Part shown: positions 3,171 to 25,233 of the stretch, one piece after another
Layout of the letters: each line of letters begins with the position of its first letter
Numbering within the stretch: position 1 is the stretch's first letter
DNA from: Octopus vulgaris
Lineage: Eukaryota
Length of the DNA stretch: 64,000 nt
NCBI GenBank assembly: GCA_951406725.2
Contig: OX597821.1
Span: 68,820,001 to 68,884,000 of the forward strand
Direction: 5' to 3'
Notes under the pieces: generated by a model
Database searches by the model: none
Told to the model about the DNA's origin: nothing
What the model saw: the letters and a program-made list of their open reading frames with translations, nothing else
Position numbers and translations under genes: made by a program

Positions 3171-5395
3171 TATATATATATATGTACTTATACTTTTGTC
3201 GCCATGGGTAATATGAGGAAATATGGCACATATACAATAATCGTAATTAAACTTTTATTCAAATCTCTCAAAATGATTGAAAACACAAATACTAATTTTT
3301 AGAAAATTATTTCATACTGTCTCTCTCAATCTTTCTATATAATGTACATCATGACCGGAGAATTCAACCAACAAACAGTTTCATTGGCTAATATATATAA
3401 TTTAGACTAAGGAGAAGGGATAGAGCTTCCTATATCTTTTCTAGGCTTTACTCATCTGGATAGGAGCAAGTGCCAAGTGATATGTTTTGAAATCTTTGAA
3501 GGCCAGTGGTTCATGGAAAACATTAGGTTAGGGCTTAGGTGAAACACAATAAAGGGGAAATACATGAGGATGCTATCATTTGACTGTGTGGTCACTGGGA
3601 TATTAATTGATGATATTGCAACCAGGTTTTGCCACTTTTTTTGGGGGTTTTCTGCTGCTCTCTGTGAGTCAGTGGAACTGAGGTATGATCACTCTTTGAT
3701 GATACAAGACCAGCTTTTCCCCACCTTCCACTGTTCTTTGCCTGACAGGAGCTTCTTGTGACATGGATATACCATTTCAGTTTCCTTGTCTTCATAATTG
3801 TCAGCAGATCCTTGTGGTCAAATAGCCTGTGTTATTCTCATCCCCACATCATCATGTTCTTTGTACAAGCCATCTCATCTTCATTGTGCTTACCTTTTTT
3901 CTTTTCCAATTCTTTTAATGTCCAAGCATTGCGGCTGTATAGAAATATGGATATCACAAATGAGGATAAGATTAGACAGAACGGGTATGCAACATCAGAA
4001 CCCAGTAGTATTCCTTGATAACTATGTATATTAAGCATGGCTGTGTGGTTTAGAAGCTCCTTTTACAACCCTGTAGTTTTGGGTTCAGTTCCACTATGTG
4101 GAAATTACCTTCTACTAGAATTCCTGACCAATGAATACCTTGTGAGTGAATGTGGTAGATAGAAATAGTGAGGAAGCCCATCATATATGTGTGCATGTAT
4201 TCACTTCTACCACCACTGCTTGACAACCTGTTTTGGTCTGTTTACATCCCTGTAATATAGCAGTTCAGCAAAAGAGATTGATAGAATAAGTACCAAACTT
4301 GAAAATATATACTGGGATCAATTTGTTTAACTAAACCCCTTAAAGTAAGTGTTCCAGCAATACTGCAGTTTAATGACTAAAATAAATAGATAAAAGATAT
4401 GAACAGCTTTGTCCAGCAAACCCTGTCTTAATTGATTTTAAGCTTCATTAAGTAACAATTTTTGGCTCTCACTGTTACCAAAGGTATCTCCTGGTAAAAG
4501 CACAACCTTAACAAAGCTAAGATCTCATTCCAGCAACTACCCATGCCCTTCAAGACTAGAAGCTACTTCAGCTCCTAACATCCTGCAAAGCTCAAATGAG
4601 GCTCTTTTCTCACATTTGAGACAGTGCTGTTGCAATACACACAGATATACCTCTCGGTTTTAGTAAAAATTACTGAATGGTAGCATGAATGGAATAAAGT
4701 GTTTTATCACAGTCTCCATTGCAATTAGTGACATTTAAAATGGAGTGTTCAGGGCCAGCTATTTTTTCTTCTTTTTTGCATTTGAATTACTCCTGCTTCT
4801 AGGATGATTCAAATTACATTCTATCCAGACATATGAAGTAGTTCTATAAATCCTAACAACTGGATACCTTTTATGAAGTCTACTCTATATTTGAGCCTGT
4901 ACGTGGTCCTTAGAAATGCTAGAAATAGCAGTCAAATCTCCCACAAATTGAAAAGAGAACATGATGAGCAATGTTATCCAAGGTCTCAGCTGGAATGCTT
5001 CTGGTTATAGTATAACTGCTTTATAATGATCCATTCATCCTATATTTAAGGAATTTGATTATGCCATTGTCCAACAACAACAGTAACTATCAGGTGTTGC
5101 TGCTTAACTTCAAGTGAATGATCGAATGTATACCAGTTGTGACCATCCCATCATTATAGGGACAAATAGGATTACAACAGCTAATGTCAGGGGAATGATT
5201 TCATTGCAGGATGTGGGTCACATAAACTGTCAGAAGTTTCTAAAACCCTAAATAGTGGTGAGGATCAAAGCCTCAAGTTCAAACAATATAGAGGTGCTCA
5301 CCAAGGAAATCATGAAATTATAAAACATTCAGTTTTTTCTCAGCAAAGAACCCCTACAAACTTTTATGCATTTGTAAGTTGCCAGTGGTACTTAA

Positions 5396-5616
5396 CTGTT
5401 TAGCACTCAGATTATTGTCAAATGTAATGCTAATTTATTAATATTGTTTTGAATTAATCATGCATTATCTCATAGCTTTGAGATTTTGATGATGCGATAG
5501 TTTTGTTTTATTTTAAGAATAACACTAGCATACGTGTGGAGGCTGGATCTAGTCAGTTTAAACATAAAATAGGGAGACTATTTGGACCAGATATGACTGG
5601 TTTAAAAGCTAAAAGG
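5396..5616. mobile_element. Same ~210-bp TTAA MITE family
   Basis: TTAA flanks; internal similarity to 14776-14988. Confidence 0.78.
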
Positions 5617-8600
5617 TTAATGAAGTTTCTGGCCCCAGAAATAAGTCTTAGATAACTAGGAGTGGCTGTGTGGTAAGTAGCTTGCTTACCAACCACATGG
5701 TTCCGGGTTCAGTCACACTGCATGGCACCTTGGGCAAGTGTCTTCTACTGTAGCTGAAAAAAGCCCATAGTCTATATGTGTTTGTCCCCACAACATCGCT
5801 GGTGTGTTTACGTCCCCGTAACTTAGCAGTTCAGCAAAAGAGACCAATAGAATAAGTACTAGGCTTACAAAGAATAAGTTCTGGGGTCAATTTGCTCAAA
5901 TAAAGACGGTGCTCCAGCATGGCCACAGTGAAACAACTGAAACAAGTAAAAGAGTAAAGAGTAATATTCTGTTATGCTTGATAGTAAGACAAATTAGTGA
6001 TTGCAATATTTGTGACAAGTCTATTTAACTACGGACTGATTGAATAAGCCATAAGTCAAAACTTGCAACAAGAATTTTGCAATAAATTTCAGTTTCAGTA
6101 TTGAGTTCCTCATCAGTAAATTATAAAGTTGCTTTAAAATAACCTCAACATAACATTTGTTATACTAAATTACATCTATTCTTTCAGTGGTTTAATGATC
6201 ATCTATTTAATGTCAGAGAATTCTGCAAATGTTAGCAGTTCACATTTTGAATTAGGTGGCCATAGTCATCTTCCATCCGACAACTAGTCAGTATTACTGA
6301 TCATTATTTGATTGATCTCTCTATGCTGCTTCCCATGGTGATTCTAATTTAGTCTAATCTCTCACCTGGTATAGTTGTTTGGGTCATAGGAATAATGGAA
6401 ATCCCACTACAACAATCAAGATAAGAATCATTAAATTTAAATCAATAATGCTGATAAATAGCAATCTTTTATTTTTAACAATAAATGGAAAGTACTTTCC
6501 CATTTTTTCATGTTTCTAACCAAACAGCAATCATCAGATAGTACATTAACTGGGTCCCCCTGCCACTGCAATAAAAATATACAATGTGTGTTACTACTAC
6601 TACTACTACTGAGTTCTCTTTCACATACTATACAGAGACAAACATTCTTTCCTTCTAAATAAGCTTGGTATAGCAAAATAACTGTACGCTGTTCTTGAAG
6701 AGTTATCGAACTTGCTCAAAGCAAATGAAAAAAAATAATCAGTAAATGCAATCTTCACTATAGAAAGAACTTTTTGTTTCGGTACAAGATCTTTTGTACA
6801 ATATGGTGGATAAAGCAGTGACTTGCAGATATTTCATCAATCCCTTGTATCTTTGCGAGATGGTTCTGCACTTTGTAGCTGAACAACCTGCACAAACGAT
6901 TTGTTTATAGTGAACAGCACACACCCTCCATCAAATTGACATTACCTGAACAGGTACATGGTGTATCATGTCAGGTGTCAAGGTAACCAGAACGTGAGAT
7001 GAGGTTTTTGGTGCCTGGCCCAAGAGCAATCATGAGTGCCACATCCTAACTTCTAAGTCATGAGTTGTTTCAACCCCCAATAACAAAACCAATACCCATT
7101 ACTTTGATTAAATCAATAACAAAAAAGATACCTAAATTCAAATTCTCTGTGGTCACCTGATTAAAAAGTTCACTAAGTAGATATGTGGGGTTCCAGATTT
7201 GAACCACCACTATGCTGTATCTTGGGCAAGTGTCTTCACCAATAATCACAAGTGATTATATCTTGCAAATGGAATTTACAGCCATGCTAGCATGGAAGGT
7301 GGAAGTTAAATGATGATAACAAAAAAAATCATTGTCTGTCAGTGTTTACACTGTCCCAATTCTTCACTAAGACAAAACCCCACCAAAAACCAAACAACTC
7401 AATATTGTTTAAGACATATTCTTTTATGTCCCACAAAAGAACACATCTCTGAGATTCATGAGCTGATATGATAAAAATCAGACCCATGAAAGCGATGCAA
7501 AAACATGGCAACACACTACTACCATGTCTGAAACAAGTGAAAGGATTTAACATTTTTTAGCATCAATCAAACAAGAGATCTAAACAGTTTCTACATGATT
7601 TAGCTACCAAATTTTTGTCTTGCAAGGGAGAAAACATTGGGCAATGTAACAAGATAACTAATACCCGCTGGATTTCTATTAATCACAGATCTGTCCTAGG
7701 GCTAAAATCAACAACAGAAATTATGATCATTGCAATTTTGATTCAACATTAAAAACAAAAATGACAAAGAATTATCTATGACAGCAGAAATTTTTAGGAT
7801 TTGTCATTTTATTCAAATTATGTACACAATAATTTGGTTTTTGTAATACTTGCCAACACCCACATACCAAATTTTCTTAAAGGGGAAAAAAAACCCATCC
7901 CCAGACAAAGACAAAAATTATACCTGTAAGATTACTGTGGTTTGAGGTAACTGTGAGCTGGTTGCCAGCATCTAGAATTGATTAGTAATGAAAAACCAGC
8001 TAAAGCAAGTCAGATGTGTTAAAAGATAGAAGAGTTGATTTTATTGATGCATAAATATACAGTCACCGCAAGCTTTCTAGCAAGGAAAACGTGAGTGAAA
8101 TTAATTTGGAGGAAAGAGAAGACGTGAATTTTATATCTATATATATTCATTTATATAAAACTGTAATTGAGTTAGATCTCCTTGCAGTCTAACATCCATT
8201 GTTATTAGTTCTGATGGGAAAAATAAGTTAGAAAGAAAGAAAAATTTAGTTTGCTTTATATTGTATGTATTAAGTCATTTGGGTAATGTTTACATTTGAT
8301 GATGAGGGGGATGGAGGTAGCAATGATGAAAGGGCCAGTGAAAAGAGAGAAAAAAGACAAAAAAAAAAAACCCCACCCCTTTATCTAAAACAGAAACCAG
8401 ATGAAGTCAGTCAGTGAAATAAAATTTAAATTAAAAATAAGTTTTCTATTACTTAGGGAGAAATTGTATAAAGTAAATGTTGCATATATTCACAGTATGC
8501 AGAGTCAAGATTAGGTGACTAACAAACACTATGGAAGGGTTAAGATTTGCTCAGCTCTTGATGGACCCAGCAGTTGTTTTGTACAAACTGTACAGATCAC

Positions 8601-9151: not shown

Positions 9152-9260
9152 CTACCTTTTGCTATTACTGTGTCCCATTCCCCTAATGGGCATTTTGAAA
9201 TTGGCAGCAGCCTGATACTGGAGTTGATATGCTAATGGGTGAATCTTGAAACCATATAAT
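9152..9260 (-). CDS. CSNK2B: CK2 beta last coding exon ([35 protein letters not shown])
   Basis: CAG acceptor, CK2alpha-binding RLYGFKIH motif, TAG at 9154-9152. Total CDS with exon 3b is 666 nt (221 aa). Confidence 0.95.
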
Positions 9261-10279
9261 CTGAAAATATATATGAATATGAGATTAAAAGATAATCAGA
9301 TGAATACAGACTGCTTCAGCAGACTCAACGGTTTAAAAAAAACAAACTAAAAACGCAAAACATAAATTACTTCAAGAACAGTCTTGTAACTTCCTTTAAA
9401 CTCTCATACAAAGAATTCAAAGTATTTTAAAAAACATATACCATCAGTTACTTCTCAAGAACACCTTCCTTCTATTTCCATATTTGTTTGTTCCTTCTTG
9501 AGCCATAACTGGCTCATAAGGGCCGCTTTCCTGGTTTCATTGGTGTATAGGTTCCCCACCTGGACAGGACACTGGACCGTCACAGGTGAGCAGCTAGAGG
9601 CAGGAGGAAAGAGCGAGAAATTCTACCACTTGCTTGAATTTCTAGTGTTTAAAGAAGCTGGACAATGTAAGCAAAAGTGAAGATTTATTTCTTTTTTCAA
9701 GAAACTGAACCAAATCATTGCTGTGATTAAAGTTGAAGTGGTAGAATTTTTAACTTGAATTAACTTGGAGATTTGAAACTTCTAAGGAGATATTGGCCAG
9801 AAGAGCTGTGCTTTAAAGCTATTTGCACTACTTCCTTGTTTATTCCACTCCAAGTCATATATAACAGAAAGAATGAATTACAAAATGAAGAGAATTAGGA
9901 GCATTTTTGCAATAAAGGCATTTAATAAACTAAATAATGTAGTCCGAGAAATAATTTCATGTCATGATATTTGAAAAAAAAAAAAAAAAAAATTTCAATA
10001 ACTAATGTTTTACTAATTTTCCAGTACTTATCTGTAATTAGAGTAGTCTGAGACAAAAATTCCATAATAGATATATGCAAAAACCTTAGTTGTGTTCCAA
10101 ATATCACTTTTATATATTTTGATAAATGAAAAAATTTGTCTTATGAAAGCAGTCCATATTTAATTTAAGCACACAGAAATATAGTAATGAAAAGGTTTAA
10201 CTCCCTTCCATACCACTTCTGGGTCTTTGATACACAACATCTAAAATGTTTAGATTTCGAAATAAACTTTCCATCTTAA

Positions 10280-10572
10280 CCCCTTACCCAACAATTATTT
10301 TGAAAATAAATGCATTTTTTCAGACATATTTTTTTATTGTTTTATTTTACTATGTTTTGAATGGTGATTTCGAGGTATATTTCAAACCTTATTTATTATG
10401 AATTTTTATTCAATAATATTGATTTTAAATTACAGCTTTGGGCAGAAACGAGTTAACCCGTTTTTAGACGAAGGAACTCATTTGCTGTCGATTTTGGCGA
10501 GTTAACTCGCCAGAGATAGAAAAAAAACGATTTCGGTCAAAACGCATATATTCGTTTCTGCCGGGTAAGGGG
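10280..10572. mobile_element. piggyBac-type MITE
   Basis: TTAA|CCCCTTACCC...GGGTAAGGGG|TTAA: perfect 10-bp TIRs with TTAA duplication; internal palindrome GGCGAGTTAACTCGCC. Confidence 0.85.
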
Positions 10573-11020
10573 TTAATATGCTAGAACCTTTTTGTTAAAT
10601 CATTTTCCTAACACTAGCTTTGCAATGAACCAATTGTTTCAGCAAATCCTAAATTCTCAATTGTTTTTGAAATAAACAAACACACAAGCTGTGTATTCCA
10701 TTAGAGATATGGCCACAAATTGTTGAAGTCCCTGTGAACTGGTAACATGTCTTAAGCTCAAGTAACTGGTTGTTTCTTACACAATTGAAACCATTAAAAC
10801 AAAAAACTATTCATATAGTTCTGATGACAGTAAGGATTGCAATTACATTGAATTTATATTTTTTATATATGTATAGGCACAGGTGTGGTAAGAAGCTTGT
10901 TTCCCAACCACATGGTTCTGGGTCAGTCCCACTGCTTGGCACCATGGACAAGTGTCTTTTACTCTAATCTTGGGCTGTTGTTAGATGGAAACTGAAAGAA
11001 GCCTGTCGTATATGTGTGTG

Positions 11021-11052
<32 letters not shown>

Positions 11053-11249
11053 TGCATGTGTGTGTTTGTTCTCCACAATCGCTTGACAACCGATGTTGGT
11101 GTGTTTACGTGTTCGTAACTTAACAGTTTGACAGAAGGGACCGATGGAATAAGTATTAGGCTCATAAAGAGTATGTCCTAGGGTCAATTTATTCAACTAG
11201 GAGGCGGTGGCTCCTGCATGGCCGCAGTCAAATAACTGAAACAAGTGAA

Positions 11250-11287
11250 AGAGAGAGAGAGAGTGTGTGTGTGTGTGTATGTATGTG

Positions 11288-11357
<70 letters not shown>

Positions 11358-11367
11358 CACACACACA
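11250..11367. repeat. Compound microsatellite (GA)n(GT)n(GTAT)n(AT)n(AC)n
   Basis: Directly visible, about 50 nt inside the intron downstream of the CSNK2B exon 5 donor. Confidence 0.95.
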
Positions 11368-11416
11368 AATTCCCTACTCTCAGATTATTGCTAGTGAAAA
11401 GCAATCAGCACTCTAC

Positions 11417-11606
11417 CTTGGAATAAATTGGTTTGCAGGACGCTTAGGTCTGTATTCAGGATGGACCATGAACAACATGTGTGGGAAACCAGTGCCGAAA
11501 TATGCTCCATCCGTGTGGTGATGACGAGAAGACTTAGGTGTGTAAACATCTTGGCATTTTGGACAGTACAGCTTTACCATGGCTTCACCAGGTACATCAG
11601 TGAGAC
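11417..11606 (-). CDS. CSNK2B: CK2 beta coding exon 5 ([63 protein letters not shown])
   Basis: 190 nt, phase 1->2. CPKC zinc ligands and [11 protein letters not shown] signature. Confidence 0.98.
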
Positions 11607-12778
11607 CTGTTAAATATACAAGGGGAATAACTTGAATAGTTGCAGTTATCAGAACAAAACAATAACAACAAAATATATCTGCTTAGAAGGAAAAAATAAA
11701 ACCCACAGGAATTAGAAAATATTTAACCCTTTTTTCTTGTAAGGGCTCACTATCAGCATTACAATACTGTTTTTTTTTAAAGACAACTCTGTAAAGTCAC
11801 ACACTGGTTTTCAGCAACATGTTTGACAAAGTAAAATTTAAACTGACAAATTTTATGAATAAACCAGTCATAGACATTCCTACATTTAATACAACCATTA
11901 AACCCTTCAAATAAACTCCATGAGCCCTCAGTACAAGGTTTTCACTATGCATACAGGTTAACACATAAACGATCCAGTTTCACTTAGCTGGTTCATTAAG
12001 CAAGTCAGCCTGCCAGTGGCCACTAGACAATGAATTATATCTCTTAGCCAGTCCCTCAGCAACATGACAACTAAGCAGTAAACACTCAGTTAAAAAAATA
12101 ACTAACATAGTCATAGTTAATCTGACCATCCAAATTCAATGTTAAGAAATTTTTAATAAATTCACTTCCAATTTGTCTGAAACTACCTACTTTCATTAAT
12201 AATACGTGCCATCAAAAAGGGACAGCGAATTGTTTGAGCAGTCATTTTTATATAACTATCACCTTCATTTTAACTTGAGTGTGTACACATGAAACAGAGC
12301 TCCTGCTGGGCTAAGCCTATAATCCCTTTGAAAAGTAGCTATTTTATTTACATTACTCATGAGCTGAGGAGAGGCATGAACATTTCAAGTTACCATTTCA
12401 TGTTTTTGAAAATCGATCAGATTAATTAGAAAATATACTGAATACAAATGTATTAGGATATGCAGAATATGAATCCTTGCAAATTAGTTTTTCTAATCAA
12501 TGGGGTTTTCTTTTGTTTTTTTTTCAGAAGCTTAGTCAGAGAAGGGAAATGTCAATGAATGTTTTCGAAGCTCCCACTTCCAAGTGCTAAGTGATGGTGA
12601 TAAACTGGACGATGGACTGGTATTAGCTTCTAGGCAATGTTTTAAGAGGTGATAAATAAAATATACCTCAACCAAAAGCACACAAAATCAGTAACAGTGT
12701 TTCAATTAATGACAACAACACTTTCACAACTCAACTATTCAATGAGGACTGACATGAGAACTTGATCAACAAACTTAC

Positions 12779-12854
12779 CAATAGGTAGCATGGGTTGGTT
12801 TTCACAATAAACCCTAGGACAGTAACCAAAGTCACCTTGCTGCCATTTTTCAAT
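12779..12854 (-). CDS. CSNK2B: CK2 beta coding exon 4 ([26 protein letters not shown])
   Basis: 76 nt, phase 0->1. First half of the CPxxxC zinc ribbon; canonical splice sites. Confidence 0.98.
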
Positions 12855-13296
12855 CTGTCAAAACAACAATGTCTTTATGAAATACAAGTGATGTACTGCT
12901 AGGTGGCAATATTTGTTTCATAAATCAAATGGTTATACTACAGTTCTAATTCACTGCAGACCACTTCTAAACAGTAGTTTAATTCTATAGCTGTCTATAT
13001 TCTTATAAAGATAGAGGTTTATAATTATTTTATACTAGTTTAGATGCTGAATTAGAGTTTCAATGCATTTGTTTCTGCAGTAAAGCAAGTTTTCTAAAGC
13101 TACATATCATATAATAATTGTGTTCCGAACATAAAACAAAGAATATAAATTTTAAAAATTGAGTTTAAAGAATGCATAAATCTATTTGCAAGTGTAGAAA
13201 CCATTATCCTATATTTAGAATAAATGTTTATATCACATTAATTATAGTTGCATAGCTACAAATTGAGGGGAAAGAATAGTCAAATCAACCCCAGTA

Positions 13297-13527
13297 TGTT
13301 TCTTTATTACCCACAAGGGGTTAAACAGAGGGGACAAACAAGGACAGACAAACGGATTAAGTCGATTACATCGACCCCAGTGCGTAACTGGTACTTAATC
13401 TATCGACCCCGAAAGGATGAAAGGCAAAGTCGACCTCGGCGGAACTCGAACTCAGAACGTAGCAACGGGCGAAATACCGCGAAGTACTTCGCCCGGCGTG
13501 CTAACGTCTCTGCCAGCTCGCCGCCCT
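13297..13527 (-). mobile_element. Young tRNA-headed SINE with Meta-like central domain
   Basis: 17-bp TSD TCAAATCAACCCCAGTA (13280-13296, 13528-13544), CpGs intact, core GTCGACTTTGCCTTTCATCCTTTCGGGGTCGATA. Other copies at about 955-1177, 1665-1860, 23675-23885, 32070-32225, 43228-43440, 53064-53270. Confidence 0.85.
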
Positions 13528-14775
13528 TCAAATCAACCCCAGTAGTTAACAGGTGCATGTTTAAATCAACAGCAGCAAGATTGTATAAGGATGGGACTAA
13601 ATTCTGCAAGATTCATTTCGAAGGAATGTTATTGATGATAATAGAAATAAATTGAACTATTGCTTTTGATTCACCCTGGATTAAAATGCACTTCGTTTCA
13701 TGCTTGAAACCAAATTTTCCAGAGACTTTAGCATGAGAAATTATTAATCATTCCTCAGATACTTACACATTTCCTATGGGCTGATGCAGCAAGAGTGGCC
13801 CAGGATCTTGCTAGCATGTAAGATTAAGAAGAGATTTCCCCAAGGGCTAAATCAACAGTAATAGCAATATGTCTAAAGTACATTTTGGATAATGTTTACC
13901 ATAAGAAAGTAATATACTTTTACTAGTTTCAGTCATTTGACTACTTCAACTCACTTAAGGTCTAGAGTGACTCACAGCTATGGTAGAAAACAACTTGCCT
14001 AGCATGCCTTGTAGAAAATGAATATGGAAGGCGATGTGAACTTTTTATCCAGTTGGTCAGTGTTTTGATTAAGTAGACCTATAGTCAGAGGCATTCAACC
14101 ATGATCATACCAATGGCTTAAAGATATGTAGGACTTCATTATCCAATGTGTTCTTTTCTTTTCCAAGACAGTAAAGTGTAATTTTAGAGAAATTTGGCTG
14201 CTATATGCAGCAAATCAAACAATCATATAGGAGACCTCTCTGTTGAAACTGGTAGTACAAACAGGTCCATTCTATAAATGCATTTTTACAATTCTATTGT
14301 CAATTTTTACTTCAGATATTTCCAACAGCATTTATTAACATTTGATAAAAAAAGTTTTTTTCAAATATTCACAAAAATTGAAGCAGTAAGAAGTATTTGC
14401 TAATTTTTTGCATGCCCTAAATGAACTAAAGATTTAATTAAGATGTAAGAGTGGAGACAGTTAGTACCATAGTTGGGATTTATTGGGTGTAGAAAACAGG
14501 AATAAACCACAGAACTTAAAATGATGGTTTAGTAAGCAGAAATAAAATACAGCAATCATGTAGCCAAACCAAGCTAACAAACCCATTACAACTACCTAAC
14601 CATACTAAAATGGATGCAGCTATATGCTTAGATATTAACTCCCAAAGCTAGATGAAGTTTTACTAACCGATGAAAAGATAATTAGGTTGATTGAGACAGA
14701 ATATCTTCAAAATTTAAACCCATAGTTAATTCTGATAAAAATTCATATTCAAACAACAGGAGATGATCATTTTAA

Positions 14776-14988
14776 CCCATTAGCATTCAGATTACTCAAA
14801 TGCAACACTTATCCATTGACATTGTTTGGAATTAATCATGCATTATCTCATAGCTCAGATTTCGATGATATGATTATTTAGTTTCAGAACAACATCGAAG
14901 GTAGATGTGAGAGGCTGGATCTGTTTGGTTTGAACATAAAACAGGTAGAATATTTAAGCCAGACATAGCTGGTTTAAATGCTAATGAG
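14776..14988. mobile_element. Same ~210-bp TTAA MITE family
   Basis: TTAA flanks, degenerate TIRs, shared internal GAATTAATCATGCATTATCTCATAGCT. Confidence 0.8.
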
Positions 14989-15163
14989 TTAAAGAAACTG
15001 TTAATATTAACATTCCATTCCCAACCCTCTTTAAACGATCTCAAAGGGAATTAAATGTGTGAATACGACTACACACTAGTTGGAAGCCTTAAGCTAAATC
15101 TGAAAATGTATTTTAAATAGAACAGCAATGAAAATAAAAAAGCTGGTTAACGGCTAAGCTTAC

Positions 15164-15279
15164 CATTTGAGCTATGCCCCTATTTGTCATTATGTAACGT
15201 GCATGGATCAAACCATACAGCATCTCAGCAGCTTGCTCAATCAAATCACTTTGGTTTGGATTATCTTCAAGTTCATCAT
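15164..15279 (-). CDS. CSNK2B: CK2 beta canonical coding exon 3b ([39 protein letters not shown])
   Basis: 116 nt, CAG acceptor, ATG|GTAAG donor, phase 1->0. Near-identical to the vertebrate CK2beta acidic loop and following helix. Confidence 0.98.
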
Positions 15280-16779
15280 CTGTATAAAGATAAATCATTT
15301 ACAGCCATCAACTCTCGCCCAACCAATTCCGATCAACAAACCCTGCAGAAACAATTACTGCGCACGTGTGTGTGTGTGTGTCTGCGTATGTGTAATAAAA
15401 AATAAAACAGCAAAAAAAGAAAAAGGAATTTTGGAAACGGATGCAAACTTGCAAAATTCATATTTAAAAATAAATAAAAAAATAAACACCACTACAAAAA
15501 TTATAACCAGAAATTGCGGGAGGAGAAAATGCACAACTCCTTTAATCATATCTAAATTCTCTAGATAAAAAAAGCCATGCCTCTAATGGCAATAAAATAT
15601 ATTGAATTGCAGTATATGACATTCAAGATTCTCAGGACTAAGTAATTGTCATGATTTTTCTAATCAGTTGATTAGTTATTAGTTAGTTCATGTATTATCC
15701 ATACTTCTTATATCTAGTTACTAAATCTACACCATCATAATCATTTTAACACCCTCCCTCTTTTTTCCATGCGTGCATGGAGTTTGAGGCAGTGTTCTAT
15801 AGCAGGACGGTCTGTTTGCCACTAATTCTCACCCATTTCCAAGCAAGACATGTTTTCACAGAATGACACTGCTTACATGATGGTGACATTCATTTACAAC
15901 CACCACACAATGTCAAGACAAGGACACATGTAATCACATTTCGAATCAATCATTCACTGCGGTCCTGTACTTTTGGTTTTCATTTGCTTTCTTCCACAGT
16001 ACGTAAATTTCCTAACTAAAGTTGGTCTGTTATCAAGATTGAAAAAAACCTTCAGTTGTTGCATCTTCAGTGCCTACATACAACAACACATACATATATA
16101 TACAATGGGTTTCCTTCAGTTTCCATCTACCAAATCCACTGATAAGGCTTCGGTTGGCTCAGAACACTTGCCTAAGGTGCCATGCAATGGGACTGAATTC
16201 ATAACCATGTGGTTGGGAAGCAAGTATTTAAAACTCAAATGGCTTTAAGATCTTGCAATTGGTCAGTTAATCAAACATCTTCAATTTTCTCAGACTATTA
16301 GAATCCTTTTGCTAAAGAAAGTATGTGTGTCATAGAAAATGCTACTTCCTTAGAATATGTATTTATCTGCTACATAATTCTGCAATATCCTAACTGCCAA
16401 CTGTTGAAGCACCTATCACCTGCATCAATTTCATACATCTTGATTAATGGTTCTAACTAATCATAAGCTAGAGGCAAACCCTTCATCTCAGATGCAATGC
16501 AATAAATTATATAAATATGAGACACTAAAACATATTCTATTTCAGCCTAAAGACAGCAGTAAAATTTAGCTGTCCTAAAATATTATCTTCAGATTTTCCC
16601 CCCTCTCCTTCCATGAAACAATTATTAAAGTCAGACAGAAAAACAAACACACTTGAAGGCAGTTCAAATTGAGAATGTCATATTATGCAAGGTGTGAGAC
16701 AAGAACAACAAATTTCTTTTGAAAACAAAATGAACATTCCATCAGACAGGGTCATGGCAGGAAGCAGACAAATTCTTAC

Positions 16780-16892
16780 CATAGTACTGAGACCAGCATT
16801 TGTTAGGATATATCTAGCATGAATCAGTCCATAAAGCATGTCAGCAGCCTGCTCCAGCTGGTCTTTATTAACGCAGTCATCCCCATCATCGT
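16780..16892 (-). CDS. CSNK2B: CK2 beta alternative (duplicated) coding exon 3a ([38 protein letters not shown])
   Basis: 113 nt, open frame, polypyrimidine tract plus TAG acceptor, ATG|GTAAG donor, phase 1->0. Clear paralog of exon 15164-15279. Confidence 0.88.
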
Positions 16893-19223
16893 CTAACACA
16901 AGAAAACAGATCTTCACAGTGAAGAAGCTTGGACAGATACAATGTGATAATAGAGTTTACACAAGCTATTAACAGCCAGCAGTCACACTTAAATTAGAAC
17001 ATATACAATCACAATACAATTTCAGTAAAAATTAGTTCTGAAAACTATCACATTTTCATTTGCTTTGCAATTAAGAACATGACAGTCATAGAAAACTTAC
17101 CTATTTCTTTTGGTTAGTACATTCGTGTTAGTGAAGGAGTATACACTGCCTAAATTTGTGAAGGTAGCAACTACTCTATTCTCTCTCTTACTTTTTCCTG
17201 AATGTCTTTTTTTTTTCTAAAACAAGGAAGCTCATGTGCCCTGATTAGAAGCGAGTTCTGATGTTATGAACAGGACTCTTGGTCCTTTTTAACATTAAGA
17301 TGACTGTATGGAGGTGCAAACAAATTCTAAACTATGGACAAAGCACGTTTGTCCATCCATATATGTATACTGCGACACTAAAACGAAGTTACCTCCCTTC
17401 TATACTATAACTTCACAAACACATGGAAATATATTTAAAACATCTCAACTATATTTTCATGTTCTTTCCCGAATGCAAAGCGACATATTTCTCATGAAAA
17501 TGGACTGCATTTGAAACTAATGTAAAAGCTTTGTGCATTATCACATCCAAGATCTGCTGTGCTGAAGTGAATTAGGAACGCAACAATCTCTGCTAATTTC
17601 TTATGCAAGCTCAAAGTGCAAATATTACAACAGTTTATCTGTGAGAGAAATGCTGACTGATGTCACAAGAAAGCCATCACAACAAAGGAATACAATGTGC
17701 AAACCACTGTAAACTTATCTCCTAAACATAAAATATTTAATGATTGACATTTACAGAGACATCAAATTTATTAGATTAATACTAGTAAGGAACTGTTTTG
17801 ATCTCACCAAAAGCTACTGGTTTTACTAATAACCAGTCAACTGTAATGATATATTTTTATACAACAGGAATAAATGCTGGCTATATGGTTAAGAAGTAAA
17901 CTACATTTTACTGTTCATTCCCATTGTGTGGGTACTGTCAGTGTTTTCTACAGACATGGGTTGATCAAGCATTGTGAGTGAAGTTGGTAGATGGAAACAG
18001 TGAGAAACCCATTCCATATACATGTGTACTTGTGAGTGTGTCTTCCCCTTGTCTTAACAGGTATACACTAATTGAAAAAAAAAGTCATCATTCATATAGC
18101 ATCATTTGTTTACAATATATCCAAGTAAACATGCCAAGCCATTGAGTTGTTCAATGTTGAAGTAAGATGGGGAAAATGTTACTTTCCTCAAAAACAGAAG
18201 AGTGCTGGTAATAGGAAGAGCATTTGGCCACAGAAAATCTACCTCAAACAAGTTACATCTGCCCCATGCAAGTATAGAAAAGTGGAGGTTAAAACGATAT
18301 TGAAAATTGCATCTCTCCTGCAGCTGATGCTTTTGATATTTTAAATCTAATTAGCAACTAATTTCTCTGATTTAGAGAAACCTCATTATACTTGCTTAAA
18401 GTTCAAACTGAATAACCAGATGAATTTTTATCTCCAGTTATAATATTTCTATATTTCTGTTTTTTTTTGCAATGTCTCATGGTCAAAAGTATTCCATGAT
18501 ATTGAATGGTCTTAATGCAATAAGCTGTTGTATATACTAGTCACCACATTCAGAGTCTGCAGTTAAAGAGTTCAGATCAAACTTTGATCAGATTGATCTG
18601 ATACCTATCCTCAGCTGTAGGCTTAACTGTGTCACAACAAAGTAAAAGGGTTTTGATACAAAACACAACAAAAATAAGTAACATTTTAAAAGATTTTTGT
18701 TAAAGCAGAGCAAGGTAGCACCCATGAAATTTTTGCAGGGTTTCCAAAACTGGCAAAGAAAGCACCCACGTGTTATCTTCAGATTGGAGACCATAACTGA
18801 ATGTTTACAACATAGTAGATGAAAAGGTAATAAAGGGTGAAACGGAGATGAATTAGTTCTATTGAATTTCACTGACAAGGCTTGGAACGACTCAAGGCTA
18901 TGAAAGAAGCCACTTGTCCAATGTACTGTGCAGTGGGATTGAACTGGGAACTTCTTAACCATAAAGTCATTCATATCCCCAAGTGCACCTAGTTGAATAT
19001 CTTGATCATTTTGTCATATTCATCATCATCATCATTTAGTGTCTGCTTCCATGCTGGCATGGACTGGACAGTTCGACTTAAACTAGTAAGCCGGAGAGCT
19101 GCACTAAGTTCCAGTCTGGTTGGATGCCCTTCCTGACACCAACCATTCCAAGAGTATAATGGATGTGTCTCACAAAAAAAAAAAACTTTTAAGAATCAAA
19201 ACAAAAGCCAATAGATTGAGTAC

Positions 19224-19326
19224 CTGGCTCAAGGTCTAATATCATATCCAGAGCCTGCCTATAATGAGGGACTTGTTCATTGAGACCTGTTAAGTTGAAT
19301 TTGTCTTGAATATAATCTTCATCAAC
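19224..19326 (-). CDS. CSNK2B: CK2 beta coding exon 2 ([34 protein letters not shown])
   Basis: 103 nt, CAG acceptor and GT donor, ends in phase 1. Contains the D-box-like RQALDMILD and the start of the acidic loop. Confidence 0.98.
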
Positions 19327-21073
19327 CTGCAATAAATAAATAAAAGATTAATTACACAAATTACATGCTAAGAAAGTAAAATAGCAAAGGTATGTATCAT
19401 AGTAATAGCACTAATTGTAGAAATGTACACTGACTCTTTCAGCGATAACTGAATGTATGCTAGCAAATAGTTATTAATAGAATTAGTAGAACAGAGAACA
19501 CCAAAGTACTGGTACTACAATAAGATTATTGATATTGGTATTTAACCCCAGGTCAACCCTAAGTAAGAAGGGAAATAAGTGGTCGAATTCATTCAAGCTA
19601 CAGCCATATTCTTTTCAAGCTGTGTATTTAAAATCACACAAACCAATGTATCCGTTTTTAAGATGGTAGATACAAATTGAAAGAGATTTGACTGCTATTT
19701 CTCACAAATATATCAATTACATAAAAAGTCCTAACACCTAACTTCACAGTAAAATATACAGTCTTGTTTCTATATATTAACAATAACCTACACAACATTG
19801 GTATCCTATGAATTGTGTCAGTCATGTGTTTGTTTTTAATTATCATTGTTTTAATGTCCACTTTTCCATGCTTGCACTAAATTTGTGAAGGCAGATTTTT
19901 CTATGGCCAGATGCCCTTCCTGCCGCCAACACTCACCTGTCTCGAAGATATTATTTCTCCAAGACCAGACATGTTTTCATGAAAAATTGGAAACAAAGGA
20001 CACTGCATGCATAATAGCAATACTCGTTACAGCTATCATATGAAATCTAGGCAAGAAGACAGTAACACACACGTGAATGTGTGTGTGTGTATATATATAT
20101 ATATATCATCGTTTAACGTCCGTTTCCAATGCTAGCATAGGTTTGACGGTTTGACTGGAGGTCTGGGAAACCCGGAAGCTGCACCAGGCTCCAGTATGAT
20201 TTGGTAGTGTTTTCTACAGCTGGATAAACTTCCTAACGCCAACCATTAAGAGTGTAGTGGGTGCTTTTTACATGCCACTAGTATCTACCACGTTTGGATG
20301 ATATAAAATGGGCTTTTTCCAGTTCTCATCTACTGACAAGGCTTTGGTTAGCCGGGGGTTATAGAAGACACATGTAAAAGGTGCCACACAGAGACTGAAT
20401 CTGAAACTTCTTACCTCACAGCTATGCTCATGCCTACGTTTTGTTTACATTTATTGAAGGAGCCATTAACAGTTTGGGAGAAAAATGTGAGATGATGATG
20501 ACTTGTTAACAATGAAACTGGTAGACTTGATCCTCATTCCAAGCTGCCAAAAGTTCCCTATGGTCCTAATTTTTAAAAATGGAGATTCAATGCAGATTGA
20601 TCATGGTTAGAATGCCTTTTGATCATAGATCTAATCCATCAGAACAGACCAGGAGCAGAATAACATCACTTAACAGCCAGTTTTCAACGAGTCAGACTGA
20701 ATTTGTTGAAGCAAATTTTCTATGATCAGATACCCTTCCTGTTGCCAGTTCTCACCTGCTTCCACAGTTTCCATCAACCAAATTCAAGAACAAAGCATTG
20801 GTCAGCCCAAGACTTTGTAGAAGCTACTTGCCCAAGGTGTTGAACAGTAGAACTAAACCCAAAACCACATAGCAATATATGCTTTTCATGGAAAAGATTC
20901 CCAGATCCTTGAGTAATTGCTTAGTGTTTCCAATTTATATTGGACCTTGGATTGTTATACAGCAAACTATTTACATAACATGGCATTTAACAGAGCAAGT
21001 TTTGAATTTTCTTTTTAAAGTTTGTCTATAAATCAGCTGTAAATTGCATTAATTGTTGTTTTTTGTTTCTTAA

Positions 21074-21482
21074 CCCTTTAATATTCAGATTTCTTTCTTC
21101 AATTTATAGCTTATTTATTCACATTGTTTTGAATTAATCAGGCATAATCTTGTAGCTTCAAGATTTCTATGATATGATTGTATATGCCAAAACTGACCCC
21201 GCCTGTGCTGGTGCCATGTAAAAAGCACTCAGTCCACTCTGTGGGCGGGCGGGCTGGCTGGTGTTAGGAAGGAAGGAAGGGTATCCAGCCGTAAAAACCA
21301 TGCCAAAACAGACACTGAAGTCTGGTGCAGTCTTCTGCCTGGTAAGCTCTTGTCAAACCATCCAACCCATGCTGTTGAATCATGATGCTTGTAGGGGTGG
21401 TGTGAGAGGTTGGCTCTGGTCAGTTTAAACTTATAACAGGTAGAATATTTGGACCAGATATGGCTGATTTAACTGCTAAAGG
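21074..21482. mobile_element. TTAA MITE copy interrupted by a retroposon (about 21183-21390)
   Basis: MITE 5' and 3' halves are separated by a GGAAGGGxATCCAGC-family repeat. Confidence 0.7.
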
Positions 21483-23146
21483 TATATATTATTGAAAAAC
21501 CTGCTATATTTATGCACAATAGTGTTGAGGATTCCACTCTTTCGAGCATCATATTTCCAGACTGTGAGTGTCTTTCTCATTTCAGCCACTGGATTGTGTT
21601 CATGCTGGAGTACTTCTTTGAACAGTTCAATTAAACAAATCATCCCTAGCACATATTTTTTAAAACCTGGTACTTAGTCTACATTGCTGAACTGCTAAGC
21701 TATGGGGATATAAACAAATCAACACCAGCTGTTAAGAGCTGTGTATGTGTGGAAACAAGCAAACACAGACACACAAAGTTTCTGCCTATCAAATTAATTC
21801 ACAAGGCTTTGGTTGACTTGGGGTTATCGATGAAGATACTCACTCGAGGTACCATGCAGTGGGATTGAACCTAAAACCACGCCTGCTTGCATACTTTCTT
21901 TTCAAACATTTCCCAACCGCTTGAAAGGAAAGCAAATATACTCATATTTGAAGACATTTTCACTAAAGGATAGACAATATATAAAGAAAAGATTTATAAA
22001 GCACTGACATATTGATAATTTTTTTCTCTTTTTAACTTGAATGCAAACAATGTCAAGAGTAGTGCTGGCTGCAAGTGACGGCGTTTAATAAAGATCAGTG
22101 AAGCACAATGAAAAATGCTGAACAATGGATTTGCTGGACTATGGATACCAGATTAATGGAACTTTTCTGTATACAGGCACAAACTTGGACACGTGACCAA
22201 GTTTGCTTTGTGACCATGTGGTTTTGGGTTTAGTTTCATTGTGTAGCACCTTGGGCAAGTGGCTCCTACAAAGATCTGTGAGTGAATACGGTAGATGGAA
22301 ACCATGTGGAAGCCTGTTATATATGTGCCTCCCTGCCAGTGTTGGTTCATGCCTTCATAACAAAGTGGCTTGGCCTGAACACCCCTGTACATAACTCCAT
22401 GTCCCCCTACATGGTCTTGCTTTTTGCTTTTTGAGCCAAAAAATTAACTTAACTCAACTAGTAAGTACTAGACCAATAAAAAAATATATACAAAAAGTGG
22501 GTTTGATGTGTTCAACTAAAACCTTTTGAAGCTGTGCCCCAGCGTGGCCACAGTCCAATGACTGAAATAAGAAAAAGCTATGTACATAAAAGGTGTTGAG
22601 TGAAACTGACAGCCAGTTCTTAAATTACACCAAGAGCGACCCAGAGTTCTATTATTAAACAGAGACCTGTACTAACACGACTATTTTTAATGACCTCATT
22701 AATTGCTGTTGCTATTTACGTATTTCATATTTGGAAGCCAATCCCAATCCAGGTTGTTTGCTAATTTGGTATAGATTCTTTTAATTTCTATTGGTTTCAG
22801 TACTGCTTTTTCTCACATTGTTATTTATCATTCAGAATTCACAAGAGTTTTAAGTAAACATGTTATTTTTATCTTTTATTTTACTTGTTTCAGTCATTGG
22901 ACTGCGGCCATGCTGGTGGCACTGCCTCGAAGAATTTTAGTCAAAGGAATCAACCCCAGTACTTATTCTAACTTTTTTGCTAAACTGCTAAGTTACAGGG
23001 ATGTAAACAAACCAACAACAGTTGTCAGGTGATAGTAAAGGCATAAAACACAGTTTCCTTCAACCGAGTTCACTCACAAGGCTTTGTTCAGTCTGAGACT
23101 ATAGAAGATGCCCAAGTGATATTAAAAAGGCAACATCCTTTTTTGG

Positions 23147-23319
23147 CGCAGGAGTGGCTGTGTGGTAAGTAGCTTGCTTACCAACCACATGGTTCCGGGT
23201 TCAGTCCCACTGCGTGGCATCTTGGGCAAGTGTCTTCTGCTATAGCCCTGGGCCGACCAATGCCTTGTGAGTGGATTTGGTAGACGGAAACTGAAAGAAG
23301 CCCGTCGTATATATGTATG

Positions 23320-23362
<43 letters not shown>

Positions 23363-23562
23363 ACGTACGTGTTTGTCCCCCTAGCATTGCTTGACAACCG
23401 ATGCTGGCGTGTTTACGTCCCCGTCACTTAGCGGTTCAGCAAAAGAGACTGATAGAATAAGTACTGGGCTTACAAAGAATAAGTCCCGGGGTCGATTTGC
23501 TCGTCTAAAGGCGGTGCTCCAGCATGGCCGCAGTCAAATGACAGAAACAAGTATAAGAGTAT
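23147..23562 (+). mobile_element. Abundant tRNA-headed SINE with internal (TA)n(TG)n microsatellite (representative copy)
   Basis: A/B-box-like head GTGGCTGTGTGGTAAG...GGTTCAGTCCC and tail CCAGCATGGCCGCAGTCAAATGAC. Copies at about 4036-4400, 5660-5962, 10875-11250, 21560-21880(-), 22200-22575, 22871-23117(-), 33725-33890, 35130-35465(-), 35925-36262(-), 47925-48260. Confidence 0.88.
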
Positions 23563-24178
23563 CTTAATTATTTTTCAGTTAGTTCTATAGCTATTTTTTT
23601 TTCTATTGTATTTTATAGAGCAATTATAAATAAATTTGACTAAACTCCCTTTTCCCCACACATCATTTAATATTCTTTTCTACTCTAGCACAAAGCCAGA
23701 AATTTTTGGGGAGGGGGCCAGTTGATTAGATTGACCCCAGTACACAACTGGTACTTAATTTATCAACTCCAAAAAGGATGAAAGGCAAAGTTGTTTGCTG
23801 TGAAATTTGAACTCAGAATATAAAGACAGATGAAATACCATTAAGCATTTCACCCAGCGTACTAATGTTTCTGCCAACTCACCATCTTAATATTGATAAG
23901 TGAATGTATATTATACATGAAACCAGAGTATAACTCATCATACGTCAGGTAGCTTTGAGAGTGTACTTTCGCCACCAAGAGTAATAACAAGAATTATGTC
24001 ATACACAATACAATAATTACAAATTAACTTTCATCAAATTTCTTGGTACTTATAATAAAATAAATATTTAGTTTCAAAAGAAAAATATCTTAAATTCCAA
24101 ATTTCTCGTTTGAATAACTTCAACTACTGCCATTCACTTCCTCTCCTCCAGTCTGATTCAATCTCTCTCACTATTGTG

Positions 24179-24212
<34 letters not shown>

Positions 24213-25161
24213 TACATATAGATGACCGTTCTTTTACTCATTGCCTGCCACCAAACCTCTTATGCGCACATATCCTGCACCTTATAACTTACCTCTCTCT
24301 ATCTTTTTTGCTCTCCTCGCTTTCTCTATGAGGTGTAAAGCATGACCGGAGAAATCAATCAACAATTATATCTGCTATTATTATATCAAAACTCCTTACC
24401 ACCAAAAGATTTCATTGCTCAAAGTTATGCCTGTGGGTCATCATCATCATTTAACGTCCGTTTTCCATGCTAGCATGGGTTGGACGGTTTTGACTGAGGG
24501 CTGGCAACCAGATGGCTGCACCAGACTCCAGTCTTGATCTGGCAGAGTTTCTACAGCTGGATGCCCTTCCTAACGCCAACCACTCCGAGAGTGTAGTGGG
24601 TGCTTTTCACGTGCCACCTGCACAGGGGCCAGTCAGGCGGTACTGGCAATGACCTCGCTCGAATGGTGCCCTTTTACGTGCCAGTTGGTTGCTCTGGCAA
24701 CGATCACGCTCGGATGGTGTTCTTGGCACCCTACTAGCACAGGCATAAGTGCCAAAGTACGATACAAATGAAAAACTTCTCTTATTAGAAATTATTTCAT
24801 CACAGGAATCTCTCGCCTTGCATATGTGTAAAAATGTTTTTTCTACCTTGTTTGGCACCAGGGCCAACCCTGAACAAGCAGACCTATAATCAAAAACATT
24901 ATCACGAAAATCCTGGGTTTTTTTCTCGTTGTTTTTAAAAAAAAATTAACAAGAAATGGCGGTGCCCCAGCATGGCCACAGCTCATAAGCTGAAACTAGA
25001 ATCAATCAATCAATCAAAACTACATTATCCAGTAAGTCATGTTTTAAAATGGGTGATTTAAAAGAATTACTAATGAGCACCCACAGAGATGCGCATAATT
25101 TTTAAAAATATTATTGTTAAACAAATTAACAAAGAATGACAATAGAATCAGCTCTACTTAC

Positions 25162-25233
25162 TTCGCAAAAGAACTCATTTCCTCGCAATCCACAAAACCA
25201 GGAAATCCAAGAGACTTCCTCTGAACTACTCAT
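25162..25233 (-). CDS. CSNK2B: Casein kinase II subunit beta, coding exon 1 ([24 protein letters not shown])
   Basis: Translation matches the conserved CK2beta N-terminus. ATG at 25233-25231, acceptor CAG at 25244-25242 (exon starts 25241), donor GTAAG after 25162. 72 nt, phase 0. Confidence 0.98.

Follow-up and report, generated by a model that had tools for sequence, protein, structure and literature searches.

A tandemly duplicated third exon, spliced one copy at a time, in the CK2β gene of Octopus vulgaris

The CK2β gene and its two third exons

The window, i.e. the whole stretch of 64,000 nucleotides analyzed here (Octopus vulgaris, contig OX597821.1, positions 68,820,001 to 68,884,000), carries the sole CK2β gene of the octopus genome. 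Its six-exon coding region occupies positions 9152-25233 of the minus strand and includes two candidates for exon 3, designated 3a and 3b (Table 1). A CK2β search of the genome (2.8 Gb, 227 contigs) returned seven matches, all of them exons of this single locus, and when the 3a peptide was compared with the whole genome the two matches obtained were 3a itself and 3b. Both copies have AG acceptors, GTAAGA/GTAAGC donors, phase 1->0 and open frames; these features, along with their coordinates and lengths, are as described in an earlier note on this DNA, made from the sequence alone.

Table 1. Features of the CK2β locus, with positions counted from the first letter of the window.
Feature	Position	Strand	Description
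CK2β coding exon 1	25162..25233	-	residues 1-24; canonical ATG at 25233; joined to exon 2 in 4/4 runs
Exon 2	19224..19326	-	residues 25-58 and the first nucleotide of codon 59, with D55-P58 of the acidic loop; donor shared by 3a and 3b
Exon 3a	16780..16892	-	113 nt, 37 aa; divergent alternative copy
Intron between 3a and 3b	15280..16779	-	1500 nt, GT-AG
Exon 3b	15164..15279	-	116 nt, 38 aa; canonical copy, inferred default
Exon 4	12779..12854	-	common acceptor for 3a and 3b
Exon 5	11417..11606	-	second cysteine pair of the zinc finger; bulk of the C-terminal part
Exon 6	9152..9260	-	coding part up to the stop codon
Dispersed-repeat pair	17967-18025 and 16092-16150 (span 16092..18025)	opposite-facing	brackets 3a

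The encoded protein aligns to human chain 1jwh_C, with the zinc-finger cysteines and the C-terminal segment present. Joining exons 1-2-3a-4-5-6 yields 220 aa, identical to residues 10-229 (the last 220) of XP_036361111.1, the RefSeq 'casein kinase II subunit beta isoform X2' of Octopus sinensis, and use of 3b yields 221 aa, identical to CAI9726954.1/XP_029639655.1 (O. vulgaris, O. sinensis). The 3a and 3b forms score 257 and 261 bits, respectively, on Pfam PF01214, both covering profile positions 1-182 of 182; 3a by itself reaches 33.4 bits, the cut-off being 27.

If 3a and 3b are both included, a stop is found after 108 aa, 343 nt ahead of the last junction; if both are skipped, the stop falls after 59 aa, 261 nt ahead of that junction. 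A stop well before the last junction is the usual signature of a target of decay. The earlier note had taken this frame lock to mean that exactly one copy can be used. The early stops are there in both cases, but the lock cannot by itself prevent co-inclusion and therefore only makes its product a likely decay target.

Splicing of the two copies in public runs

Most or all of eight sampled words of 3a are contained in 20 of 24 listed runs, under four organism labels. Seven distinct runs were examined as contigs rather than reads; none is recorded as RNA, their kind being guessed (probable RNA). The 2->3b->4 splicing was present in all seven and the 2->3a->4 splicing in two of them (X12 and X8, from two studies and with two organism labels). 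In each of these two a single 169-nt contig spans the joints 19224->16892 and 16780->12854, alongside a 3b contig, so each copy is spliced to both flanking exons and bridges the other, and the four joints that the earlier note had named are all seen there. The sides of the joints measure 27 and 29 letters, below the 31-letter guide, and the same holds for the 3b contigs of X12 and X8. In these contigs the two exons are spliced one at a time and both forms occur, which agrees with the two full-length subunits, of 220 and 221 aa, that had been claimed.

Contig depth, which is a rough measure, was 29.2 for 3a versus 47.1 for 3b in X12, and 2 versus 3 in X8. The added depths of the two copies approach those of the flanking exons (29.2+47.1 versus 82 and 94; 2+3 versus 5 and 4.8), and 3a inclusion is about 40% in both runs. 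Joints between 3a and 3b, or between exons 2 and 4, were absent among the joints listed; decay would hide such forms, and contigs drop rare ones. In X1, X3, X13 and X18, 3a was found solely in intron-containing contigs, at a depth of 4-15 versus 242-796 for 3b, and X10 had zero cover on 3a at 96% likeness. From these data we infer that 3b is used by default, 3a making a substantial contribution in some samples.

The pair shows several features of tandem-duplicated mutually exclusive exons: the copies are adjacent and homologous, encode the same protein region, share the same phase and have a similar length. As to how exclusivity may be enforced, the intron between them is 1500 nt long with 88 AG dinucleotides, both donors read GTAAG, and none of seven splice-site windows clearly beat shuffled sequences in a duplex scan, one being marginal; a clear docking-selector pairing, an intron short enough for a donor-to-branch distance below 50 nt, or a U2/U12 mismatch was thus not found at the CK2β locus. 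The dispersed-repeat pair that brackets 3a has a pairing energy of -80.6 kcal/mol, versus -45 ± 6 kcal/mol when shuffled, and as a candidate element could loop 3a out and favor its skipping, although the repeat has ten matches within the window and the arrangement may therefore be incidental. Three inverted repeats (I12, I13 and I17) beat shuffles, but only after selection from 117. Among the same 117, a pair of neighboring AT-rich arms lying upstream of 3a (17825-17863, with 15281-15299 and 15665-15683) could form nested duplexes with the acceptor region of 3b and with a second, more upstream site, possibly by chance. Our best guess is a choice of exon by trans-acting factors with decay as a back-stop: 3b would be used by default, splicing factors would turn 3a on in certain tissues, and transcripts with both copies or neither would be removed by nonsense-mediated decay.

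Constraint on exon 3a and the residues it changes

Over their last 28 codons, 3a and 3b share 20 identical residues, with synonymous differences in 11 of these 20 codons (pS 0.83, pN 0.21), and 3a retains all 12 exon columns that are invariant in 59 other CK2β proteins. Both the proposal of an old tandem duplicate under purifying selection and that of a helix core conserved despite synonymous codon changes are borne out by these figures; the string quoted in the earlier note, GCAGATATC, is present in neither copy. In a comparison of Octopus species, a Logan protein matches 3a at 37/37 residues. The four listed differences of the 3a contig in X18, which comes from another species, are all intronic, a fifth being outside the listing. 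Among the contigs listed, the 3a contig of X1 has 4 changes in 333 nt, whereas four further intron contigs total 43 in 930 nt (Fisher p 0.004); in X13 the corresponding figures are 7 in 313 for the 3a contig and 12 in 193 for intron contigs (p 0.03). Among Octopus species, conservation also seems higher in the first ~200 nt of the intron between 3a and 3b than in other pieces of intron. The 3b peptide is identical (38/38) in six trochozoan rows, including Pomacea, Nucella, Sinanodonta, Crassostrea and Tubulanus. Exon 3a is real, spliced and constrained.

By alignment to 1jwh_C, exon 3 encodes residues 60-97. The acidic loop has been placed at residues 55-64 (PMC9182197) or 55-70 (PMC9608649), and the earlier description of the exon pair as swapping this loop has to be corrected: residues 55-59 come from exon 2, and 3a keeps all the acidic positions, with an acidic residue at 60, 61, 63, 64 and 70. 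Each copy has seven acidic and two basic residues; D61 is found in 32 and D63 in 17 of 59 other animal CK2β proteins. The exon switch, as translated, replaces just part of the acidic loop and leaves the net charge unaltered, and since the acidic charge is unchanged an altered autoinhibition does not necessarily follow. What does differ in 3a is the loop itself (L62G, N65C, P66V, Q68K, loss of one residue, L71Q and I72L) along with E77D, R92A, I94L, A95S and Q96T, most of these changes occurring in 0-3 of the 59 other proteins. Residues Y80, R86 and M97 are unchanged. Residue 72, described as a spermine contact near E60/61/63 (PMC8533506), and E77, assigned to the acidic groove in a study that reports Y80 and M97 as buried (PMC9608649), both lie within the alternative exon.

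The zinc finger and the C-terminal α-binding parts (domain roles according to PMC9608649) are encoded by the shared exons, and from the unchanged exons 4-6 the 3a form would likely dimerize and bind CK2α. The 3a subunit is likely to be folded and to assemble, with a different surface rather than a de-acidified loop. AlphaFold predicted the 3a form with low confidence in both models obtained (pLDDT 48 and 55). The region 60-97 is one where human disease variants have been reported (E77K, Y80N, R86C and M97I; PMC9608649), and a natural swap of these residues provides a ready protein pair with which to test which surface sets partner choice.

Occurrence in other molluscs, origin and interpretation

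A second exon-3 copy of 37 residues, known from gene models only, lies upstream of the canonical exon in Pomacea and Nucella. The existence of two copies explains the garbled snail models that join parts of both (P0018 of Pomacea and P0055 of Nucella), which are probably mis-annotated. Complete 37-residue exons of the 3a type were found in the ORFs P0223, P0056 and P0358, and a 36-residue 3a-like exon in P0324 (ENA). Gastropod-type copies and octopus 3a have in common a shorter loop, L89 (M89 in 3b) and A92, the latter confined to five 3a-type peptides among the 208 exon peptides counted. A serine occupies position 92 in 24 of the 208 (P0096, P0114 and kin), this site being variable in some animals. 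A 3a from squid, cuttlefish, Nautilus or a named bivalve was not found among the best 120 of 276 and 150 of 356 matches, both sets consisting of cluster representatives. Two matches in Timema douglasi (P0054) were set aside, as they repeat a larger block that extends beyond exon 3, which could be another kind of duplication or an error of assembly. A metagenome scan for the R92A motif gave two unrelated loci, L003 and L004, and the duplicated exon is absent from both: the first (5001-5950, JGI metagenome) is a divergent intron-containing CK2β with A92 in which no intron separates the exon-3 part from the exon-4 part, and the second is a protist-like CK2β, likewise with A92.

Octopus 3a is identical to the gastropod copy at 21 of 38 positions and to 3b at 23 of 38. 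In free trees built on the 38 columns, which are unresolved, it joins Mnemiopsis and not the gastropod copies, and the 3a rows group in just 6% of bootstrap trees, whereas a single 3a clade was not rejected by the AU test (p 0.15 and 0.11). Gastropods and cephalopods separated approximately 500 million years ago. We regard a single origin of 3a, by one duplication of exon 3 before that split, as fairly probable, and the exon pair is probably an old molluscan feature. That both lineages duplicated the exon on their own and arrived convergently at R92A and a shortened loop is a less favored but still sizeable possibility: beyond the separation in the free trees, the loop sequences are widely different, R92A has arisen elsewhere, as the metagenome loci illustrate, and convergence in tandem exon duplication has been reported to be frequent (PMC9741552). 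The two copies share, however, the same upstream position and 37-residue length together with A92 and L89, and the AU test leaves room for one clade.

As for function, we lean toward a reading in which splicing one exon at a time produces a default 3b subunit and an alternative 3a subunit with a remodelled docking surface. The 3a subunit would still dimerize and bind CK2α and would meet other partners and substrates; the changes in the loop (62-72, one residue deleted), at E77, and at R92A and Q96T, which would sit at the start of the next helix, may alter partner docking, the polyamine response or tetramer oligomerization, rather than acting through net acidity. Tissue specificity, mixed dimers and a changed polyamine response, which the earlier note had also anticipated, would be extensions of this reading from sequence. 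An unlikely alternative is that 3a, although real and spliced, is near-equivalent or relaxed, its changes being drift on a tolerant surface and the two subunits behaving alike. The long octopus 3a branch (0.57-0.69), the equal acid and base counts, the tolerance of other animals for loops of 18-22 residues and for S, N, K or I at position 92, and the lack of observed 3a splicing in five of the seven runs would fit that explanation. It is harder to reconcile with a 3b that is frozen (38/38 identical across molluscs and a nemertean), with changes at N65, P66, Q68, L71, E77, R92 and Q96, residues kept in 49-58 of 59 proteins, with gastropod 3a peptides that are conserved among one another, and with an inclusion of about 40% in two runs. 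Less probable still is that 3a acts chiefly as a poison exon for dosage, co-inclusion or intron retention leading to decay and the in-frame 3a form being a by-product. The stop 343 nt ahead of the last junction upon co-inclusion, the frequency of 3a in intron-retaining contigs and the seemingly conserved flanks of 3a point that way, but the clean in-frame 2->3a->4 contigs at around 40%, the protein-level constraint on 3a and the lack of 3a->3b joints among those listed, even if decay would hide them, argue against it. An assembly artefact, a paralog fragment or a dead exon, which could be suspected from 3a being unspliced in most of the runs examined, has a negligible probability: it is refuted by the splicing of 3a into mRNA, and stands against the presence of 3a in 20 public runs under four organism labels, the single genomic locus, and a synonymous divergence from 3b with the frame intact.

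A broader version of the preferred reading, in which 3a makes a functionally distinct subunit, can be put forward tentatively. Molluscs might have held for some 500 million years a splice switch between two interchangeable CK2 regulatory cores from one gene. It is equally tentative that the β3a/β3a, β3a/β3b and β3b/β3b holoenzymes would differ in autoinhibitory oligomerization and substrate docking, as are deployment in a particular tissue, nerve or gonad for example, and a faster remodelling of 3a in octopods. The extra copy in snails suggests that molluscs likely use the switch to modify the behavior of a kinase that is otherwise constitutively active. If true, this would be a naturally occurring system, switchable by genetic means, in which to test how such a kinase is controlled. 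How the always-active CK2 is regulated has yet to be settled, and leading models give a central place to the acidic region of CK2β (PMC8533506, PMC9182197).

Metazoans generally have a single CK2β form, according to a review (PMC5374408). In Drosophila the same source lists splice forms VIIa-d and the paralogs CK2β′, SSL/CK2βtes and Stellate, so that, as in octopus, there are several CK2β forms per animal, which are non-redundant in vivo. The Drosophila paralogs differ in the acidic micro-domain, but alternative splicing there affects the C-terminal tail alone and leaves the core as it is, core variants being encoded by separate genes (PMC5374408), whereas in octopus a single gene alters core residues 60-97 by an internal exon swap. 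By analogy, splicing would serve the octopus as the paralogs CK2β′ and SSL serve Drosophila. Mammalian Csnk2b has been described as giving minor alternative transcripts, through species-specific skipping or retention that results in truncated products (PMC3626593), unlike the full-length homologous swap found here. Tandem-duplicated mutually exclusive exons are known to keep core residues, and about three quarters of human homologous exon events are reported to be tissue-specific (PMC9741552, PMC5740500). Neither of these works on tandem-duplicated exon pairs mentions CSNK2B in its main text; the gene is absent from one supplement of PMC8373072, and passages of PMC4883820 contain nothing on the pair. 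Our literature search, with subscription papers and most supplements outside its scope, gave no account of the exon pair or of R92. The suggestion that the arrangement was undescribed is correct in that no paper was found, but RefSeq already models the 3a isoform in O. sinensis. XP_036361111.1 is an automated annotation that says nothing on exclusivity, spread or function. The surprise is thus bounded, the class of event being well known and the isoform automatically annotated, if apparently undescribed in print; what is new is the gastropod copy in the same upstream position.

Other features of the gene were observed in the course of this analysis. High-copy dispersed repeats, very deep in transcript contigs, occupy introns at approximately 13300-13520, 23075-23540 and 24440-24940. 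A distant 3' exon (~3934-3838, minus strand), known here from sequence, matches the C-terminal extension of the O. vulgaris model CAI9726953.1 and recalls the alternative CK2β tails of Drosophila. At the other end of the gene, an upstream ATG exon segment (25345-25325, minus strand) precedes the canonical start and corresponds to the N-terminal extension of isoform models of O. sinensis and O. bimaculoides.
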